DNA of 64,000 nucleotides, taken from contig NC_073397.1 in NCBI RefSeq assembly GCF_028641065.1, positions 20,770,001 to 20,834,000 on the forward strand, read 5' to 3'. A model generated the notes under the pieces. The model was not told the origin of the DNA and did no database searches. It worked only from the letters and a program-made list of their open reading frames with translations. A program made the position numbers and the translations under genes. This DNA comes from Leucoraja erinacea (taxonomy: Eukaryota). This document shows positions 27,022-51,945 of this stretch, piece by piece. Numbering within the stretch: position 1 is the first letter of the stretch; the number at the start of each line of letters is the position of its first letter.

Positions 27022-28836
27022 AGACACTTACAATTATGCCACCAAAATAGAACAAGAAATTTCAACCAATAACACAAGAACTGTCTGGAAAAAACTTCAG
27101 GAAAGCACCAACTACAAAAAGAAATCCACCCCATCCCTGATAATGATCATCAACTCCCAGATAAACTGAACATTTTCTATGGCAGGTTTGAACAGTCTCC
27201 AGTCCCTCCACCCCCGTCCCCCTCTCTTCCTCCCCCTCCATTCCACATCCAGGAGGCCGAGGTGAGGATTACCTTCAGGAGACAGAAGAAAAATAAATCA
27301 GCAGGCCCAGACAACATCAGCCCAGCAGTGCTCCATCATTGTGCTGCAGAACTGGCCCCCGTCTTCACCAACATCTTCAACACCTCCCTCTGCCAATGTT
27401 CAGTGCCCCAGTGCTTCAAACAATCCACCATCATTCCTGTGCCCAAGTCTAACACAACATCCTGCCTCAATGACTACAGACCAATTGCCCTTACATCCGT
27501 GACCATGAAGTCATTTGAGCGCATCATTCTCGCTCACCTCAAAACCAGCACTTCCTCCAACATGGACCCATATCAATTTGCATATAGAGCCAACAGGTCA
27601 GTAGAAGACACAGACAACCTGGCCATCCATCACACTGCAACACCTGGAAACCGCCAACACTTACGCCCGCATCCTGTTCATGGACTTCAGTTCTGCATTC
27701 AACTCCATCAACCCGGTCAAACGCTTCCATAAATTAACGGACATGAACATTGACCCCTGCATCTGTCACTGGACCCATAGTTTCCTTTGGAATAGACAAC
27801 AAAGGGTGAATATACACAACACCATATCTCACCCTCTGCACCTCAGTACAGGAGCCCCTCAGGGCTGCGTCTTGTCACCCTGGTTATTCTCACTCTATAC
27901 AAATCATCTCACATCCCAGTATAGTTCAGTCAAAATATACAAATACGCAGATGACACAACCATCATAGGTCTCATCTCTAACAACAACGAAACAGAATAC
28001 CGCACTCAAACACACAAAGCAGTCACTTGGTGCACAGACAATAACCTCCTACTCAACACATCAAAAACCCATGAACTTATCATCAACCTCAGACGTAAGG
28101 CACAACCCAAGACCCCCCTACTCATCTCCGGCGAACCCATATCCACCACTGACTCATTCAAATTTCTTGGCACTCACATAAGCAATAACCTCAAATGGAA
28201 AACCAATTCAGATCACATTTATAAAAAAAGCCAACCAAAGACTCTTCTTTCTCCGCCAGCTCAAGAAGTTCAGAGTGAGGAAACATCTCCTAATCCAATT
28301 TTACACAGCCATCATCCAAAGCATGCTCACTTCATCAATAACAGTTTGGTACAGCAGTTTAGATACTCGCTCCCGTAATAAACTACAGCGCATTGTCAAC
28401 AAAGCATCCAAAATCATCAGCACTCCCCTCCCATCAATAGAATCACTCAATCTCGAACGGTCCGTGTCAAGGGTGAAGAAAATCATTTCTGATCCCTCCC
28501 ACCCCGTTCACCACATCTTCCACCTGTTGCCCTCAGGGAGGCGCTACAGCTCACTGCCTGCCAAAACATCACGATTCAAAAACAGTTTCTACCCATATGC
28601 AATTCGAACTCTGAACACTCTATGATAATATCACAAAGCCACCCCGTGCATGTACTGAACACTGTATGTTGTCTGTGCTTTATGTTATGTTATGTTCTGC
28701 TTACTGTGTTCTTCCGTTCCACAAACTGTATGTCTGCACGACTGGAATCAGCTTATTGTGTAACATTCTGTACTGAATATGAATTCCACCAGTTTGACGG
28801 TGTGGTGATTAAATAATCTTGAATCTTGAATCTTGA
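27022..28836 (+). mobile_element. Rex1/Babar-clade LINE, 5'-truncated and frameshifted
   Basis: ORFs 27262-28625 contain KSAGPDNI, LNDYRPIALTS, MDFSSAFN, TGAPQGCVLSP, KYADDTTI and LLPSGRRY. (TCTTGAA)n tail; apparent TGAAGACA target duplication inside a Penelope-derived repeat. Confidence 0.9.
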
Positions 28837-29699: not shown

Positions 29700-29800
29700 A
29701 CGACCATTGGTTCAATTAAATTAAAACGGCAACCTGATTGGTGGGGTGTTGACGGGAGCGATATTCAAATAAACGGCGGGAGGGGCGAGGCGGTCAGAGA
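29700..29800 (+). promoter_or_regulatory. UBE2C core promoter: tandem CCAAT boxes plus CHR element
   Basis: ATTGG at 29706-29710 and 29737-29741 (31-bp spacing), TTCAAA (reverse CHR, TTTGAA) at 29764-29769, and GGCGGGAGGGGCG; this is the known architecture of G2/M DREAM/NF-Y-regulated genes. Confidence 0.65.
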
Positions 29801-29802
29801 GG

Positions 29803-30052
29803 AGGTGGAAGCGGCCGATATACACACGGGCACGGCTGTTGTTGGTGGTGGAAGCGGCCGATATACACACGGGCACGGCTGTTGGTGGTGGAAGCGGCCG
29901 ATACACACACACGGGCACGGCTGTTGGTGGTGGAAGCGGCCGATATACACACGGGCACGGCTGTTGGTGGTGGAAGCGGCCGATATACACACACGGCTGT
30001 CGGTGGTGGGAGCGAATATATATATACACACACACGGCTGTCGGTGGTGGGA
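29803..30052 (+). repeat. Minisatellite, ~40-bp unit, ~6 copies
   Basis: Unit GGTGGAAGCGGCCGATATACACACGGGCACGGCTGTTGGT repeated in tandem, degenerating towards the 3' end. Confidence 0.9.
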
Positions 30053-30131
30053 GCCCGGACGAGCATACCTCAAGCCCAGGCGAAAACAGCACCGCTGGTC
30101 AGACCCACCCCCCGCCCGCCCTGCAGCCACA

Positions 30132-32976
30132 ATGGCCCAGAACGTGGACCCCACCACCGCCGCGGGCACCGCCGCAACCCGAAAAGGCAGCGAAAGCGGC
30201 GCGGCCATCACCCGTGGTTCGGTGTCCAAAAGGCAAGTCGGGGTGGACCGAGGGTTTGCGGGGCGCCACGGCTGGCGGCTGGGCTACTTGAGTCTAACTG
30301 TCTCGTGTCTTCCCACAGGTTACAACAGGAACTGATGGCCCTCATGGTGAGTCCACAAGGGGAAGATTTGTGCGGTTGGGGGTGGGGATACTCCTTTTTC
30401 CCCATTATGGCCAATGTCGCTTGCAGAACCTGAATCGAGCCCCTTGTTGTTTTGTTCTTTCAGATGTCCGGTAACAAAGGAATTTCCGCTTTCCCCGAGT
30501 CGGACAATCTCTTCCGTTGGATTGGCACCATTGACGGCGCCGTGGACACGGTGAGCGGACACTGGGGGCAAGCTTGGGCCCGGCCTAGTTTTGTAGCGTG
30601 AGCAAGGATGTGATGGGCCGCCGACTCTGCTTTAAATTCTACGCGAGGACCTGAAAGTAAATGTGCTCTGATTGATCTTGTTTACAGGTCTATGAGGGTT
30701 TGAGGTACAAGCTCTCTCTAGAATTCCCCAGTGGCTACCCGTACAACGCTCCCACGGTGAAGTTCCTGACCTCCTGCTATCATCCCAATGTGGACGGAGA
30801 AGGCAACATCTGTCTGGACATCCTCAAAGACAAATGGTCAGCACTTTATGACGTCAGGACGATCCTGCTGTCGATTCAGAGTTTACTGGGAGGTAAGAAT
30901 TTCTGTCTGAAATAGAGGATCCGAGTGACTTTGTGCAGGTATTTAGCACGAGGCTTATTTGCTATTGGACCTCGGATGTTGGGGGAACTAATAATTTCAC
31001 TATTGCAAAGCGCCTTGCATTATTAAATTAAGGGCTGCAGTTCAATTGAGCATTTGCGAGGCCATATCTGGAGCCGTGCGTGTTTTTGACCTCCAGTAAA
31101 CCTTTCTCTGAGCTAATACTGAGAATGAGTGTTGTCTTCTGATAAAAAAAAAGATTGTCATAAGAGCATGGGGGAGAGTGATTTGAAGCGCAAGATCCCG
31201 AGGAGTATTCAGGTGAGAGGATACTTCCCCTTTGTGGGGGAAATCTGCAACTCGTACTCTCTACCTAAGACGTATGGGGCACTCTTTGGCATTATCCCCG
31301 TAAGGATTTGGAAGCATAATATTTGAAGCTGACTTTATTGTGAGAAGTTACTCTGATAGAACGGGAATGGGTGGTTGACAGTCAATTTGGATTCCGTGAG
31401 CGCAAGGATTAGTTTTGTTACTCTGTCTAGACAAACGGGTAGTTTACAGTGTCCGTGTGGCCTGCTGTTGCACATATTTCGCATCTATTGTACATGTTGT
31501 CCTTGTTTGGGTATCTGCACTCATTCCCCTAGGATTCCTCTTTGTTCTCAATTTAAATTGAGACGCTGCCCCACCCATTGATTTACTCGAGCACTTGGTG
31601 CCTTTTTATTCCCAGCCATTTTGTTCTTGGATCTGATTAGTGTTGAAGGGAGTATTTGTTTCAATTTTTGTGACTTCCCATTGAGATTTCACACATTTCT
31701 ACATGAGTAGACCTGCTTGTAATGGTTTTTCCTTTGCCCCTAATGTGACTGAATTTATTGTTAGTTGCCATTTTTATCAAAAAAATATATAAAATGGCGT
31801 ATGGGATCCTAGACTTTATGTGAAACTAGGCAAGAAAATTGTAGGTAGACAAAAACGCTGGAGAAACTCGGCGGGTGAGGCAGCATCTATGAAGCGAAGG
31901 AAATTGGCAACTTTTCGGGTCGAGACCCTTCAGAAAATTGTAGGCTTTTTTTGCGGGGGGAGGTGGTTTGACCACAACACCAATTCACTCCTGGGTGCCA
32001 CGTAATAAGATTGGAGAAAATAGGTGATGTTTTGGGTCGAGACCCTTCTTCAATCTACAGTTTAAGCCAGCATCTGTAGTTCCTTTCTGCACATTTCGTC
32101 TTACATTTGGTAACCTTTGTTTTTTTCCTTTCTCTAAAATAGAGCCAAACATACAGAGTCCCCTGAATGTTGCTGCAGCTCAATTATGGTCTAATCAGCA
32201 AGGTAAGGGGCCATTCCAGTTTTCCGTTAGAAGGCTTTGGAGTGGGGTGTCCTGGACTGTTTGTCTCTGAACATAGAGCATCTTGAACTTTGCATTGAGA
32301 TTTCATGATACCCAGTTTGTAAAGTACCCCATCTTCATCCATGCCCTCTCTTCCCAACCCCACCCCCTGCTCTGGCCCGTACCTTCTGCCCTTTTGTGTG
32401 GACCTGGTCGAGTTGTCATTTGAAGTGAATCTGCAGAGGGCATTTAATCTTAAAGCCGCTCACCCCCCTTTGTCTGGACTGTTCGTTGCTGGTATTGTCC
32501 CTCTTTGATCATCCTGGTCCTGTTTTAGTGAAATTAACCAAGTGATCTATCAGCTGGTTCCTGGAGGTAGGATGATGAATGGGGTCCTCCTGAGGGCAGT
32601 AGGCTCTACTAGGTGGGAAATCTGGGGACTAACCCTTGCTTTGGCTGGGTGGGAGGAAAGAGGAACAGTTGATTATAGCTCTCTTGTATATCAGTTTCAA
32701 GTTTAAGGCAATTTAAATATTTGCATGTGTTTTTAATTTGTAACATCCATCCCAATGAGGAATGCACTGCAGTTTCATTAAAACAATCTGAGTAATTCCA
32801 TGACTAGAGTTTTACTCCACTAGACATTTGACCCCCACATTTGGTGGGTGGGAGCTTGGCCTGGGATTGTTGTGGATAGAGTTACTGAATGAGCTCTCAG
32901 TCTGACATAATGTGGGTTTGTTACAGAGTACAAGCAACGGCTACATGAGGCATATGCACGACAGCTGAAGAGTTGA
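30132..32976 (+). CDS. UBE2C: Ubiquitin-conjugating enzyme E2 C (UbcH10), 6 exons, 176 aa
   Basis: Exons 30132-30232, 30319-30346, 30464-30550, 30688-30892, 32143-32202, 32927-32976 (531 nt). Motifs [32 protein letters not shown] and [40 protein letters not shown] (catalytic Cys). Intron 1 donor is AG|GCAAGT. Confidence 0.97.
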
Positions 32977-37844: not shown

Positions 37845-40503
37845 AGTAAGGGGGAATGGTACAAAAGGGACGGATTGCATCTTAACAGGTGGGGGACCAG
37901 CATTCTGGCCGGCAGGTTTGCCACTGCTACACAGATGGTTTTAAACTGAATAAGGGGGGTGGGGTGTCAAATGGGATAGTTGAGGATGGAGTTAAAGGGA
38001 AAGGGTTTCTTAAATGTGTGAGCGGAGAGACAGAGGGGTGTAAAATGAGGGTAGAAGCAATAGGTAGCAAGGTGAAAAGTAAAAGTGGCAGGCAGACAAA
38101 TCCAGGGCAAAAATCAAAAAGGGCCACTTTTCAACATAATTGTATAAGGGGTAAGAGTGTTGTAAAAACAAGCCTGAAGGCTTTGTGTCTCAATTCAAGG
38201 AGCATTTGTAATAAGGTGGATGAGTTGAATGTGCAGATAGCTATTAATGACTATGATATAGTTGGGATCACGGAGACATGGCTCCAGGGTGACCAAGGCT
38301 GGGAGCTGAACATCCAGGGATATTCAATATTCAGGAGGGATAGACAGAAAGGGAAAGGAGGTGGGGTAGCGTTGCTGGTTAGAGAGCAGATTAACGCAAT
38401 AGAAAGGAAGGACATTAGCTTGGAGGTTGTGGAATCGATATGGGTAGAGCTGCGAAACACTAAGGGGCAGAAAACGCTAGTGGGAGTTGTGTACAGGCCA
38501 CCTAACAGTAGTAGTGGAGTTGGTATGGCATCAAACAGGAAATTAGAAATGCGTGCAACAAAGGTAAAACAGTTATAATGGGCGACTTCAATCTACATAG
38601 GCTTAATTAGGAAAGGGAAAATAGATTACGAAAGAAAACTGGCAGGGAATATAAAAACTGACTGCAAAAGCTTTTATAGATATGTGAAGAGAAAAAGATT
38701 AGTTAAAACAAATGTAGGTCCCTTGCAGTCAGAGACAGGTGAATTGATCATGGGGAACAAGGACATGGCAGACCAATTGAATAACTACTTTGATTCTGTC
38801 TTCACTAAGGAAGACATAAATAATCTGCCGGAAATAGCAGGGGACCGGGGGTCAAATGATATGGAGGAACTGAGTGAAATCCAGGTTAGCCGGGAAGTGG
38901 TGTTAGGTAAATTGAATGGATTAAAGGCCGATAAATCCCCAGGGCCAGATAGGCTGCATCCCATAGTACTTAACGAAGTAGCCCCAGAAATAGTGGATGC
39001 ATTAGTGATAATTTTTCAAAACTCTTTAGATTCTGGAGTAGTTCCTGAGGATTGGAGGGTAGCTTATGTAACCCCACTTTTTAAAAAGGGAGGGAGAGAG
39101 AAAACTGGGAATTACAGACCAGTTAGTCTAACCTCGGTAGTGGGGAAACTGCTAGAATCAGTTATTAAAGATGGGATAGCAGCACATTTGGAAAGTGGTG
39201 AAATCATTGGACAAAGACAGCATGGATTTATGAAAGGTAAATCATGTCTGACGAATCTTATAGAATTTTTTGAGGATGTAACTAGTAGAGTGGATAGGGG
39301 AGAACCAGTGGATGTGGTGTATCTGGACTTCCAGAAGGCTTTCGACAAGGTCCCACATAAGAGATGAGTATACAAACTTAAAGCACACGGTATTGGGGGT
39401 TCACTATTGATGTGGATAGAGAACTGGCTGGCAGACAGGGAGTAGGAGTAAACGGGTCCTTTTCAAAATGGCAGGCAGTGACTAGTGGGGTACCGCAAGG
39501 CTCAGTGCTGGGACCCCAGCTATTTACGATATATATTAATGATTTGGACGAGGGAATTGAATGCAACATCTCCAAATTTGCGGATGGCACGAAGCTGGGG
39601 GGCAGTGTTAGTGTATGGAGGATGCTAGGAGGCTGCAAGGTGACTTGAATAGGCTGGGTGAATGGGCAAATGCATGGCAGGTGCAGTACAATGTGGATAA
39701 ATGTGAGGTTATCAACTTTGGTGGCAAAAATAGGAAAGTAGACTGTATTCTGAATGGTGGCCGATTAGGAAAAGGGGAGATGCAGCGAGACCTGGGTGTC
39801 ATGGTACACCAGTCATTAAAAGTAGGCATGCAGGTGCAGTTGGCAGTGAAGAAGGCGAATGGTATGTTAGCATTCATAGCAAAAGGATTTGAGTATAGGA
39901 GCAGGGAGGTTCTACTGCAGTTGTACAGGGTCATGGTGAGACCACACCTGGAGTATTGCGTACAGTTTTGATCTCCAAATCTGAGGAAGGACATTCTTGC
40001 CATAGAGGGAGTACAGAGAAGGTTCACCAGACTGATTCCTGGGATGTCAGGACTTTCATATGAAGAAAGACTGGATAGACTCGGTTTGTACTCTCTAGAA
40101 TTTAGAAGATTGAGGGGGGATCTTATAGAAACTTACAAAATTCTTGAGGGGTTGGACAGGCTAGATGCAGGAAGATTGTTCCCAACATCGGGAAGTCCAG
40201 AATAAGGGGTCACAGTTTAAGGATAAGGGGGAAATCTTTTAGGACCGAGATGAGGAAAACATTTTTCACACAGAGAGTGGTGAATCTCTGGAATTCTCTG
40301 CCACAGAAGGTAGATGAGGCCAGTTCATTGGCTATATTTAAGAGGGAGTTAGATGTGGCCCTTGTGGCTAAAAGGATCAGGGGGTATGGAGAGAAGGCAG
40401 GTACAGGATACTGAGTTGGATGATCAGCCATGATCATATTGAATGGCAGTGCAGGCTCGAATGGCCGCATGGCCTACTCCTGTACCTATTTTCTATGTTT
40501 CTA
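37845..40503 (+). mobile_element. Young CR1 LINE (ORF1 esterase end, APE endonuclease, RT) with an internal deletion
   Basis: YKRDGLHLN (SGNH block V), GITETWL...GGGVAL...VVYRPP...MGDFN (EN), [46 protein letters not shown], then the 3' UTR with TTCTATG-type tail. A deletion junction lies at ~38600. Confidence 0.92.
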
Positions 40504-40609: not shown

Positions 40610-43120
40610 CTATGCAATGGTGCAGCAATCTCCTGAAGTGCGGCTATTGCCCTGCTGCGCTTCCTCTTCGGTCAGCATGTCTGGTGATTCTGTGTTGCTT
40701 CCATCTCCAAAGCTTGCTTCTGCCCAAGCTTCCGCGGTGGGTTCCAGGCCCCAGCTTGGAGCCTGGATCTTGGTTTCCACCTCGAACAGCATGATCCCAA
40801 TCTCTGCAATTTGCGCCTCAAGACTCGGCTCCACATAGTCTGTCTCCCCATTGGCCTCCTGCTCAGTGCTCTCCTCTATAGCGTCACAGGTCAACCCCGT
40901 GTTGGTCAGGAAGACAGCGGAATGGTCATGGGGGAACAGCTGGCTGAGACGGTGCACCAGGCCGAGATCCCGCTGGAACAGTTCCATGCAGAAGGCGAAC
41001 CGCAGCCACCAGTGTTGCAGCTGCTCCTGGTCCACAGGCTCCAGGCTCTGCCTTCTGCTCAGTAGTAGCAGCAGCTTGATTCCTGTCGCTGCCGGGGGCA
41101 GAACAGAAAACATGGTTATTGGCCAAGCCTTACACCAACATGGTATCTTGGAGCGGGGTGCACCCCAGAGCAGCAGGGGAACATTTTCCCCATCCCAACA
41201 GTACTTGAGCCTACTCCGTCTGGACTATAGACAAAGAGCCTTTTTCACCACTCTATCTACCTGTGGTGCCACTTTCAGGGAACTATTTAGTTATACGTTT
41301 AGAAACGGGTCATTCAGCCCAACTGGCCCATGCTAACCAACATGCCCCATCTACACTAGCCCCACCTGCCTGTGTTTGGCCCATATCCTTCTAAACATCC
41401 TATTCATCTACCAAATGTCATTTAAACACTGTGATAGTATCTGCCTCTGGCAACTCGTACCATATACCCACCACCCTTTGAGTACAAATGTTGCTCCTCA
41501 GGTTCCTATTTCCCCCCCTTATATACTTGTGATCCTAGATCTCTCTGTTCTACAACACGTAGAATGGTAAAGGTAATGGTAAAACAACTTTCCTAGGACT
41601 CTACCTTTCCCTTTTGAAAGTCCTGCCTTGAAAATGCAAATTTAACTGAAATAAACTCCCTTTACCATTCATTGCTCTGGCCTGTAGTCCAGCGTATCAA
41701 GATGCTGCTGTACCTCTTGAAGACCGTCTTCAATACAGTATTATGATACTGTGATATCTACAATACCATGATATCACATACTTTTGTGTCATCTACAAAC
41801 TTACAATTGATGCCCCCTGTTCATTCTTATCTAATTTGTTGATATAGTTACAGGCCTCCAATCTGAAAATCAACCTTTCACCACCTTTCATAAATCTCAG
41901 CCTCTTGCAATTTCTTCTCTAGCTTCTCACAGTGTCCTCGGATATATCTACTCAGGCTGGGAAGATGTCTCTATCTTCATACGTCTTAGAATGTCCAGCA
42001 TTTCAACTGTCCTCAAGATATCTCTTTTAACTTTCCAAAGTTTCCTAGGATTCGTGTTGTTCTCCACAGAAATATTGGATGACGTGCCAATTTCCTGCAG
42101 CTTCATGCATAGATGACTACTTTGGTTTCTGTGGGCTCTCTCTCTCTCTCCCTCACTTCCCTCACTAGCACTACCACTCAATATCATGGCAACTGATTTA
42201 TGCATCTCGATATTTTCTCTAATACATTTTATATTACAATATAACCTCTTTTTTTAAAGTATTAATACTGATTTCTTCCAAAATGATTGCAGCATGAAAA
42301 GAGGCCATTCGGTCGATTGAATTCGTACCGCATTCATCTTCATTCAGTTTTTAATCTTTCTACCAACTGGAATAATGTCGCTTCATCTGCTGTCCACACC
42401 CTTCGAGCTTTTAAATATACCGGTCGGACCTTCTCGCTCAACATAATTGCAGTCTCTCGTCCCTGCAAATCATTTCGACGAATCTCTTCTGCACCTTTCA
42501 CATTTCGTGTAACTTGATGCACGGGTGTGTATCGCGATTCGCGTACTCTTCAACGCGCGGCGGGGGAGGGGGTGGTACTTTCACCAAACTATGTACATAT
42601 CGCCCCGGATCGCTTGTGTAGGAATGAACTGCAGGTGCTGGTTTACATCGAAGAGAGACCCGAAATGTCACCTATCCCTTTCACCAGAGATGCTGCCTAC
42701 ATACCCGCTGAGTTACTGCAACATTTTGTGACTAACCCCCGATCTCTCTGTCTGTGGTTTTTAAATTATTTCGCTTCTTCTTCTTCCCATCAAACTACAA
42801 CTCTTCACATTTCTCAGCATTAAATATCATTTGCCGCCCGTCGCACCAGCCTGTCCCGGACACCCACCTGCGCTCCGCTCTCTCATCGAGCACCGGGCGC
42901 GCAGCAGCCGCTGGCGAAGAGCGGCCGAGTCGGCGCTGCTGCCCAGACACCGGGCCAGCTCACGGTGCGCGACACTCAGCGCCTCCAGCCCGTCCACGGT
43001 CCGCCCGCATTCGCCCAGCAGCCCGGCCGCCCAGCCCGGCTCGGCCAGCTGTACCCGCAGGTAGGAGCGCAGGCAACGCAGGGTCTGAGCGGGGAGGAGG
43101 GCCGGCCGTTGATAGTTCAT
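40610..43120 (-). CDS. RGS9-binding protein (R9AP/RGS9BP) family paralog, 2 exons, 241 aa, CaaX C-terminus
   Basis: Exon 1 43120-42868 (ggcgATG; donor GCAG|gtgggt), exon 2 41082-40610 (polypyrimidine tract, cgacag|); phase 1, 726 nt, open throughout. ECGRTVDGL...LGSSADSAALRQRL, QLQHWWLRFAFCMELFQRDL...LFP...LTNTGL and LEAQIAEIGIMLFEVETKIQAPSW align by eye to R9AP ECKALLDGL...VGGSADSQNLRQEL, EFERLWVAFSGCLDLLEADM...AFP...LVRTGV and LEREVLQVGEMIDNMEMKVNVPRW. Exon 1 lies in a CpG island. Confidence 0.85.
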
Positions 43121-43364
43121 CGCCAGTCCGCCTGCCACTCGTTGCAGAGCAGAGTGAGCGCACCGCACCGCTCTTCACCGTCTCCTCCGCGGGAGCGCCA
43201 GGTGCTCGCTGCCCTCCCGGGAGGGCTGCCTCCGAGAGCGGACCCGGTCCTGGGGGATCCCGGGAGACTGATACCGGACAGTCCTGGCCCTAGGAACCCG
43301 TTGCTGCGGGATTGTTCCGTTGGCGGAAGATCCCATTCGGACCATCGGTTTTGCACCGATATTA

Positions 43365-43565
43365 TGTGTGTGTGTTTGTGTGAGAATGAGGAAGTGTGAG
43401 TGTGTGTGTTGTATGTATGTATATTTGTGTGTGTTGTATGTATGTATATTTGTGGGTGTGAGTGTGTGTTGTATGTATGTATATTTGTGGGTGTGAGTGT
43501 GTGTGTTTGTGCAAAATATGTGGGAAATAAAGAGATTGTGGAAGTATGAGTGTGTGTGAGAGTGA
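43365..43565. repeat. (TG)n/(TATG)n compound microsatellite with ~30-bp higher-order repeat
   Basis: TGTGTTGTATGTATGTATATTTGTG repeated three times, immediately upstream of the R9AP-like CpG island. Confidence 0.85.
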
Positions 43566-49654: not shown

Positions 49655-51945
49655 AAGCTGATGGAAAGAATGGTAAATGAAAGATTAATGCATCTAATGG
49701 AAGAAAAAGGTATAGTGGCTAATTATCAGAGTGGCTTTAGAAAAGTGAGAGGTACTAATGATCCAGTTCTGTGCTTGGAAGATGATATAAGGAAAGCACA
49801 AGTCAAAAAATAATCTGTAGTTACCATATTTTTTGATGTAGAGAAGGCTTACAATATGTTGTGGAGAGAAGGTCTTCTAATATAGCTGCATTTAATGGGA
49901 GTAGGAGGAAATATTTTTAACTGGATAATGGATTTTCTAAACGGTAGAAGTATCCAAGTTAAAATAGGGTCAGACATCTCTAGTAAATGTGTAGTCGAGA
50001 ATGGAACTCCCCAGGGAAGTGCGATAAGCCCAATCCTATTCTCAATCATGATCAATGATATATTTGCAAACATTCAACCAGAGATGGGGCGATCGCTCTT
50101 TGCAGATGATGGCAGCCTATGGAGAAGGGGGAGGAATATACATTTTATCGTGGAAAAAGTACAGCAAGGGATAGCCCAGGTGGAAGAGTGGGGAGGGAAA
50201 TGGGGTTTTAAATTCTCTATAGAGAAGACAAAGTCAATGATTTTCACAAGGAAAAAAATTAAAGAGGATGTCCAGTTAAAACTATACGGCAACAATTTGG
50301 AAAGAATAAAAGATTTCCGTTTCCTGGGGGTTCATTTTGACTCCAGATTAACATGGAGGGTCCACATTACAAAAATAATTGAAAAATGCAAAAAAGCCAT
50401 CAATGTAATGAGATGCTTAGCAGGTTTAGAGTGGGGAGCAGATGTATTATCTCTTAAACGTATTTATGTATCACTGATCAGATCCAGACTAGAGTATGGC
50501 AGTATAGCTTATGGGTCAGCATCTAAGTCAGTGTTGTCCGAGTTGGACAAAGTCCAAGCGGAAGCTCTAAGAATCTGTATAGGAGGTGTGCGGACGTCAC
50601 CTGTATGTGCACTACAGGTGGAAACTGGGGAGATGCCATTGAGACTGCGCCGCAGACAACTAATGGCTAATTACTGGCTAAGCCTTAAGGGTCATGGAGA
50701 GAACCACCCAACAAAACAGGTAGTACAGGAGTGCTGGGAGAGAGGGGTGGCTCAGTCTGGAAGCTTCGGCTGGGTTGGAGGAGTTGTGGCAAGGGACATG
50801 GGAGTAGAGGACAAAGAGTTCTGCCCTGCAGTATTGTGGCCATCTGTGCCAATATGGTTACTGAACATCCCAAAAGTTGATCTGGAGATATGGGAGGCAA
50901 AAAGGAGGAACAAAAATTCAGACCTAAAGACAGAATATCATAGCCATATAGATAATAGATACAGGGAACACCTCTTAATTTTCACAGATGGATCAAAGGA
51001 CCCAGTAGCTGAAACAACAGGGGCGGCTGTGGTAGTGTAGGGGATAAATGTTGAGCTTTACAAGAGAACAAATAACTATTTAACAGTATATACAGTGGAA
51101 CTGTACGCTATTTTGATGGCAGTTTGGTGGATGGAACAGATGCAACCATGTAAAGTATTAATATGTAGCGACTCATTATCTGCAATCCAGAGTATTGGGT
51201 CTGGTGCATCCCATAGGCGGCCTGACTTAGTGTATGAAATCCTGCTACTATTAAGCCAAGTGACAAGGAGGGGCAGTGACGTGACTTTGTTGTGGGTCCC
51301 AGCACACATTGGTGTTCTAGGGAATGAAAAGGTGGATAAATTAGCAAAGGAGGCTGTAAAAAAAAGAAACATAGAGGTAAACTTACAACTATCCAAATCT
51401 GAAGGAAAACACATTGTGTGGAAGAAAATAAATCAGGAATGGCAACAATACTGGGAACAGGAGACAAAGGGGAGACACCTCTATTCGCTACAAAACAGAG
51501 TGGGCATTACAGCAAGAAGAGGGGGGAACAGGAGGGAACAGGTAGTATTAACAAGATTGAGGATAGGACACACTCACCTGAACAGCACATTAAAAATATT
51601 GGGAAAACACCCTACTGGGCTGTGTGAGGAATGCCATCAGCCAGAAACAGTTCAGCATGCCCTAATTGCATGTAGGAGATATGAGACCGAAAGAGGACTG
51701 ATGATCATTGAAATGAGGAAAATTGGATTGACAGAAATATCAGTAAAGAACATTCTAGAGTGTGGAGGGAAAGGAAAAGGAATAAAGTTGTTGTTTGATT
51801 TCTTGAGGGCCTCTGGGCTTATAAAAAGGATATAATGTAAAGACATGAGTACTGTGGAATGAAGCCAGAAGGTGGCAGCAATGCAACATTGCGGATGCCG
51901 GCTGCCGTAAAACTCCAAAGAAGAAGGAGAAGAAGAAGAAGAAGA
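49655..51945 (+). mobile_element. I/Nimb-clade LINE with RT, RNase H and CCHC knuckle; 5'-truncated
   Basis: GTPQGSAISP, SLFADDGSL, IRSRLEYG; RNase H IFTDGSK...ELYAI...CSDSLSAI...WVPAHIGVLGNEKVDKLAK; CEECHQPETVQHALIAC; (GAA)n tail; AGCCCCAC duplication at 49641-49648 and 51946-51953; few disabling mutations. Confidence 0.9.

Follow-up and report, generated by a model that had tools for sequence, protein, structure and literature searches.

The skate member of the R9AP-like clade lacks a transmembrane helix and has a CCaaX end, a predicted lipid anchor

Introduction

Two membrane anchors of R7-RGS/Gbeta5 complexes are described in the field, R9AP (RGS9BP) and R7BP (RGS7BP) (PMC5795056, PMC6310461). 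Both require the DEP-DHEX region together with Gbeta5, and RGS7 binds only R7BP (PMC6310461). R7BP, which is encoded by six exons, carries a polybasic stretch followed by a CCLVSS end and is palmitoylated and insensitive to prenylation inhibitors (PMC2171691). R9AP and R9AP-B have a C-terminal transmembrane (TM) helix, and Lamb et al. 2018 (PMC5795056) list them beside a third family, R9AP-like, the three having zero, two, and one coding introns, respectively. When the TM helix of R9AP is replaced by CCIIL, localisation and the binding of RGS9-Gbeta5 are reported to be preserved (PMC4148253, citing Gospe 2011).

An earlier note, made from the letters of one piece of the Leucoraja erinacea (skate) genome, had described a gene that seemed to match neither anchor, with an R9AP-type body, a prenyl/palmitoyl anchor, and no polybasic patch. 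The window, as we call it here, is the whole 64,000-nucleotide stretch of contig NC_073397.1 that was analysed (assembly GCF_028641065.1, positions 20,770,001 to 20,834,000). Here we compare the skate gene with the described anchors and with the R9AP-like clade, and we weigh how its C-terminal end may serve membrane tethering.

Results

The skate gene has two coding exons and an acidic CCaaX tail

The minus strand of the window carries two coding exons (Table 1) that encode a protein of 243 amino acids with zero internal stops, ending in GDCCTIA before the stop codon. The translation matches the L. erinacea model P0011 (XP_055508335.1; NCBI name 'RGS9-binding protein') with 0 differences. The intact two-exon reading frame of the earlier note was thus borne out, as were the acidic tail (9 D/E and 1 K/R in the last 40 residues, with three residues after the last Cys) and the absence of a C-terminal hydrophobic helix (the best 19-residue Kyte-Doolittle window has a mean of just 0.92). 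The N-terminal extension, put at ~35 residues before, came to ~32 residues when the alignment was read against the start Met of TM-type R9AP. By these features the gene is not R9AP proper, as the TM helix is absent and the coding sequence is not intronless. The CpG-island-like stretch at its 5' end is likely the promoter region. A second in-frame AG lies 6 nt into exon 2 (window 41082-41090, minus strand), and its use would remove two residues; the upstream AG is the acceptor used in the Logan products described below.

Table 1. Features of the skate R9AP-like gene, in window coordinates
Feature	Position	Strand	Description
Coding exon 1	43120-42868, 253 nt	-	Residues 1-84 and codon 85, base 1; covers the N-terminal extension, helix Ha, and most of Hb
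Intron, phase 1, GT..AG	42867-41089, 1779 nt	-	Contains repeat fragments
Coding exon 2	41088-40610	-	Codon 85, bases 2 and 3, through the stop codon; covers the end of Hb, all of Hc, the linker, the SNARE-like helix, the acidic tail, and CCaaX
N-terminal extension, ~32 aa	43025..43120	-	Kept in sharks and rays; predicted helix 10-24 with conserved Cys16
Predicted SNARE-homology helix, residues 174-191	40769..40822	-	AlphaFold2 model; domain order according to PMC4148253
CC-TIA: CaaX box Cys240 and adjacent Cys239; predicted farnesylation and palmitoylation site	40613..40627	-	
CpG-island-like stretch spanning exon 1 and its upstream flank; GC 0.60-0.71, CpG obs/exp 0.79-1.08	42800..43400	.	

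The gene belongs to the R9AP-like clade

We ran a profile search against 1.84 billion representatives, and its 74 matches included the R9AP-like accessions of Lamb et al. from coelacanth (XP_005986755), zebrafish (NP_001018364), arowana (XP_018611369), and degu (XP_004636181). Among the named rows of the similarity searches, none was named R7BP. We then calculated a maximum-likelihood tree with the last 30 residues removed from 45 chosen rows. These were apparently full-length and ended in either a CaaX box or a TM helix, which excluded fragments and rows that had neither. With the tails removed, the 18 CaaX-ending vertebrate rows formed one clade (100/99), made up of 7 chondrichthyan rows, XP_005986755, NP_001018364, XP_018611369, and amphibian, turtle, and bird rows, so that the skate row groups with accessions that Lamb et al. 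call R9AP-like. The branching order among the vertebrate paralogs was unsupported in this tree. The chondrichthyan branch was long (0.9 changes per site), and in alignment A3 the skate protein was just 23-33% identical to the eight other R9AP-like rows and 23-29% identical to the vertebrate TM rows.

The intron gave a second line of comparison. Its position in orthologs was inferred from protein models that read in from the intron, matched to full-length proteins. The column corresponds to skate residue 85 in the turtle, alligator, and smelt orthologs (3/3 non-chondrichthyan read-through models), and the intron position is therefore common to the skate gene and these orthologs. The skate protein thus resembles R9AP-like (RGS9BP3, zgc:109913) in clade, in its single intron at the same column, in the missing TM helix, and in the Cys at -4, whereas in sharks and rays the helical N-terminal extension is longer than in other R9AP-like proteins and the CC-aaX tail is short and acidic. 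With R9AP and R9AP-B it has in common the Habc bundle, the linker, the SNARE-homology helix, and similarly placed juxtamembrane cysteines, but those proteins end in a TM helix and have zero or two coding introns (PMC5795056), unlike the skate gene with no TM helix and one intron.

Judged by its sequence, the skate gene is the cartilaginous-fish member of the named R9AP-like clade, a member missing from the tree of Lamb et al., whose Fig. S6 represents two rays and two sharks by R9AP and R9AP-B and has no cartilaginous-fish R9AP-like (PMC5795056). The separate ancient branch of the earlier note already had a name, and the three families were proposed to arise before 2R (PMC5795056, section 2.6). 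It has been named and not characterised in function, the role of R9AP-B and R9AP-like being described as not established in the same paper. The suggested loss in mammals does not hold for all of them, as Lamb Fig. S6 includes R9AP-like from koala, Tasmanian devil, opossum, and degu.

A cysteine at position -4 is a clade-wide trait

To survey the tails, we searched with an 8-row R9AP-like profile, which gave 227 matches with 120 listed, and classed these with core-only HMMs. Among the 120 matches listed, 118 were R9AP-like and 2 TM-type. The listed R9AP-like rows had a Cys at -4 in 95/118, a TM tail in 0/118, and neither in 23/118, a count biased by the CaaX-ending rows from which the profile was built. 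Cys makes up 3.5% of residues in these proteins, and its frequency at -4 in the listed sequences is far above chance. A further Cys was present in the last 25 residues in 93 of the 95 listed Cys -4 rows, 51 had CC, and only 5 had 5 or more K/R; the X residue among the listed CaaX rows was L in 40, S in 31, and N in 13. In a wider search, Cys -4 was found in 19/29 rows and a TM helix in none; at least some of the 10 misses were fragments or doubtful models, and one was the degu protein.

All shark and ray species seen (10/10) end in CC-[T/I/V]-I-[A/V/T/S], with two shark orthologs ending CCIIS, and the coelacanth, zebrafish, and arowana references have the CaaX ends CVIS, CLLS, and CMLH and no TM helix. 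The spacing of the -4 Cys is kept from sharks to birds although tail length varies, with a shorter CC-aaX tail in sharks and rays, crocodilians, and birds. The CaaX box that had been noticed in the skate is thus conserved across the clade and not specific to the skate. The 23 listed rows without Cys -4 comprised 16 from spiny-rayed fishes, 5 turtle models, for 3 of which a CaaX model of the same species exists, and 2 bird models.

We compared these ends with a published set of prenylation motifs (PMC9231725). In its training sets, which derive from yeast screens, CTIA is a positive for both prenylation and cleavage, and each of the six predictor columns gives it a 1. CMVS and CLLS also scored positive in yeast screens, and CIIS is the motif of yeast Ras2; over all Cxxx motifs, 17-42% are predicted to be prenylatable, depending on the method. 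The skate protein has its Cys at -4, within CTIA, as a permissive CaaX definition asks, and its actual isoprenylation is a prediction. A tail that is only palmitoylated, as in R7BP, with the -4 Cys left unprenylated, would also account for the several tail cysteines of most members (93/95 among the matches listed) and for the 16 listed spiny-rayed-fish rows that keep Cys clusters without the -4 spacing, one of which ends in CC plus four residues. We consider palmitoylation alone highly improbable, as it leaves the constant -4 spacing over tails of varied length and the positive yeast-screen motifs without a place, and the polybasic stretch that R7BP needs is approached by only 5/95 listed rows.

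Of the invertebrate-class rows, 18/21 had TM tails, as did R9AP of lamprey and hagfish, and the CaaX tail is therefore the derived state. The tails suggest that a TM-tailed ancestor may have been truncated within the TM segment, giving the CaaX end and keeping the juxtamembrane cysteines. It had also been proposed that the skate gene resembles an intron-bearing parent of a retro-derived RGS9BP; we rejected this as not plausible, because the TM helix is ancestral, although the branching of the vertebrate paralogs is unsupported in the tree.

Several lineages depart from the common pattern. The 16 spiny-rayed-fish rows (e.g. P0164, P0179, P0183, P0194, P0199, P0207, P0209) are Cys-rich with the -4 spacing lost, and 9 end in C-x-x, which points to a change towards a short prenylation motif or palmitoylation alone. 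Bird rows (e.g. P0153-P0159) mostly end in CC-x-VL, with X=L and a predicted geranylgeranyl, the corresponding residue being S in amphibians and turtles and A in skates; these differences would represent a lineage-specific switch of the predicted lipid. Lamb et al. cite a single placental member, the degu protein P0046 (Octodon degus XP_004636181.2), which ends in CRSKG without a CaaX or TM helix and may be decaying. Outside the vertebrates, a single gene of the annelid Owenia fusiformis (P0048, P0099, P0100; CAH1795831-3) has annotated isoforms with either a TM helix or a CaaX end (CTIL) and sits among the invertebrate TM rows in the tree; it looks like an independent TM-to-CaaX switch via alternative 3' ends.

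The predicted fold is that of the RGS7BP/RGS9BP family

The AlphaFold2 model of the skate protein, made from a 25-row alignment (mean pLDDT 72.6, pTM 0.62), has helices at residues 10-24, 30-57, 66-95, 102-135, and 174-191 and a disordered tail. Present in it are the Habc three-helix bundle and the SNARE-homology helix that are a trait of the RGS7BP/RGS9BP family, and the alignment shows the motifs G-x-x-x-D-x-x-x-LR, helix Hc, TG, and P-x-W to be common to R9AP and the skate body. Pfam at its curated cut-off assigned no family to any of 9 proteins, and a PDB sequence search gave 0 matches. In the ESM Atlas, 'Zgc:109913' ranked first, and the structure neighbours of the coelacanth ortholog were RGS9BP clusters first (TM score 0.69 and 0.62) with t-SNAREs behind (0.53-0.58). 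With the skate model itself, the top Foldseek rows were syntaxin/Sso Habc domains, the best at E 0.013 and none at E<=0.001. An amphipathic N-terminal membrane helix was not supported as a general trait, with a moment of 0.38-0.57 in rays vs 0.09-0.19 in sharks.

Given the long chondrichthyan branch and the 23-33% identity, the RGS-binding surface may have changed. The main rival to R7-RGS anchoring is that the protein is prenylated and membrane-bound but no longer serves R7-RGS complexes and has another partner, for example in trafficking, or acts as a decoy. The syntaxin Habc matches fit such a role, and RGS9BP3 is described in a frog preprint as a protein of unknown function (10.1101/2025.10.31.685797). 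Of two R9AP homologs in frog retina, just one was co-precipitated with RGS9-1 (PMC2575789), so that family membership is no guarantee of a detectable complex. The R9AP core motifs, however, are kept in the skate body, and the coelacanth ortholog lies nearer to RGS9BP than to the t-SNAREs; we regard a complete change of partner as unlikely.

Transcripts and selection

The exon junction is crossed in the products of three Logan contigs (999, 948, and 947 nt). Since these contigs are shorter than the intron, they are spliced forms. In two of the spliced records (P0013, P0014), a repeat-derived peptide replaces residues 1-20 and is joined to residue 21. It stems from a short repeat with many copies in the window (best match 52087-52052, minus strand) and may reflect a chimeric contig, cryptic splicing from the repeat, or an insertion allele. 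In four raw RNA runs (1-6% of each), which do not show their tissues and are probably from other skate species, there was no depth over either exon, and repeats were deeply covered; among four contig runs, exon 2 was covered by one, probably DNA, and exon 1 by none. A search for sequencing runs, whose query included ~200 nt of repeat, listed no RNA run, and the small shares it gave do not count as evidence. A downstream TM-encoding exon, to which the transcript might have been spliced, was rejected within the window, because the best match of a TM-tail HMM over 2143 six-frame pieces of the window had an E value of just 0.66 and the skate tail showed no donor-like motif.

A contig from another skate had 8/13 changed codons non-synonymous relative to L. 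erinacea, a small sample; none of the listed differences fell in the last 12 codons, and 6 fell in the 60 nt after the stop. The lack of exon reads in the raw runs, this proportion, and the long branch could be taken to mean that selection on the skate copy is relaxed and that the gene is a weakly expressed relic, a state that may also apply to the degu copy. Against this reading stand the intact models of 10 shark and ray species, all with the same CC-aaX end, the spliced contigs, and the CpG-island-like 5' end, and we hold it very unlikely. According to the frog preprint (10.1101/2025.10.31.685797), three copies are expressed in the eye of frogs and fishes and all omega values are below 1. 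That R9AP-like is missing for cartilaginous fishes in Lamb Fig. S6 is a hint that in elasmobranchs its main site lies outside the eye.

Genomic neighbourhood

In mammals, according to the earlier note, UBE2C is followed by TNNC2. Exons at ~30100-30850 (plus strand), which from their motifs we take to belong to a UBE2C-type ubiquitin-conjugating enzyme, converge on the skate gene from ~10 kb away; TNNC2-type motifs were not found in the 64-kb window. Tandem repeats occupy ~29750-30100, upstream of the UBE2C-type exons. Broken copies of retroelements lie at 37886-40500, 27073-28378, and 49886-51835, all on the plus strand; they have endonuclease and reverse-transcriptase-like frames and are of LINE type. 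The copy at 37886-40500 ends ~110 nt from the stop codon of the skate gene. Neither AATAAA nor ATTAAA occurs on the gene's strand from the stop to ~37480, and the skate 3' end may therefore use a variant signal.

Discussion

The results bear out that the skate protein joins an R9AP-type body to a predicted prenyl/palmitoyl anchor with no polybasic patch, unlike the TM helix of R9AP and the CCLVSS end of R7BP. With R7BP it has in common the family fold, the missing TM helix, and a C-terminal di-cysteine; it differs in having 1 K/R in the last 40 residues and three residues after the last Cys vs four in R7BP. We think it probable, with considerable room for doubt, that the skate R9AP-like ortholog anchors R7-RGS/Gbeta5 via a predicted farnesyl on Cys240 and a palmitate on Cys239, which replace the TM helix.

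The H-Ras tail has a prenylated Cys and a palmitoylated Cys nearby, without a polybasic stretch. The CCaaX tails of H-Ras and yeast Ras2 are in this way alike to that of the skate (PMC2171691 for H-Ras), but their protein bodies are unrelated to the skate protein, and only the targeting logic is in common. A nearer likeness is the engineered R9AP-CCIIL (Gospe 2011, as reported in PMC4148253), in which CCaaX likewise replaces the TM helix on an R9AP body; it is, however, a laboratory construct, geranylgeranylated and with a true R9AP body, whereas the natural clade is a diverged paralog, predicted to be farnesylated in skates.

We hypothesize that farnesyltransferase would modify Cys240, after which the aaX residues would be removed and the end methylated. 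Palmitoylation of the neighbouring or an upstream Cys would be the second membrane signal, as in H-Ras, the polybasic patch being absent. The Habc bundle and the SNARE-like helix would bind the DEP/DHEX-Gbeta5 surface of an R7-RGS protein, with RGS9 or RGS11 the more likely partners by kinship to R9AP. The R7-RGS complex would thereby be stabilised and placed on membranes, where Gi/o GTP hydrolysis would be sped. Unlike TM-anchored R9AP, the skate protein could cycle between membranes with palmitate turnover; compared with R7BP, it lacks a basic tail and would retain one lipid permanently. In the literature searched, we found no binding or lipidation experiment on any R9AP-like member.

A wider reading, which we offer only tentatively and on balance do not favour, is that R9AP-like would be a third R7-RGS anchor of jawed vertebrates, a Ras-style prenyl-plus-palmitoyl shuttle derived from a TM ancestor. 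The lipid would be farnesyl in sharks, rays, amphibians, and turtles and geranylgeranyl in birds, with Cxx or poly-Cys ends in spiny-rayed fishes and decay in placental mammals; the shuttle would serve compartments beyond those of R9AP and R7BP, and the annelid swap would be independent.

Part of this picture is already known, since the R9AP-like clade is named and the engineered TM-to-CCaaX swap works, and for these two reasons our surprise is tempered. The missing TM helix and the conserved CaaX anchor of R9AP-like look unreported. No remark on either was found in the literature searched, a scope that lay outside most subscription journals and the Table S6 alignment of Lamb et al.; in the available text of PMC5795056, the passages with 'CaaX' and 'prenylation' concern GRKs only, and 'prenyl' and 'transmembrane' are absent from the available text of the frog preprint (10.1101/2025.10.31.685797).

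As far as sequences can tell, R9AP-like is likely a third way of tethering G-protein off-switch proteins to membranes. If this is true, most non-placental vertebrates, common model species included, would possess one more regulated means of positioning Gi/o off-switches.
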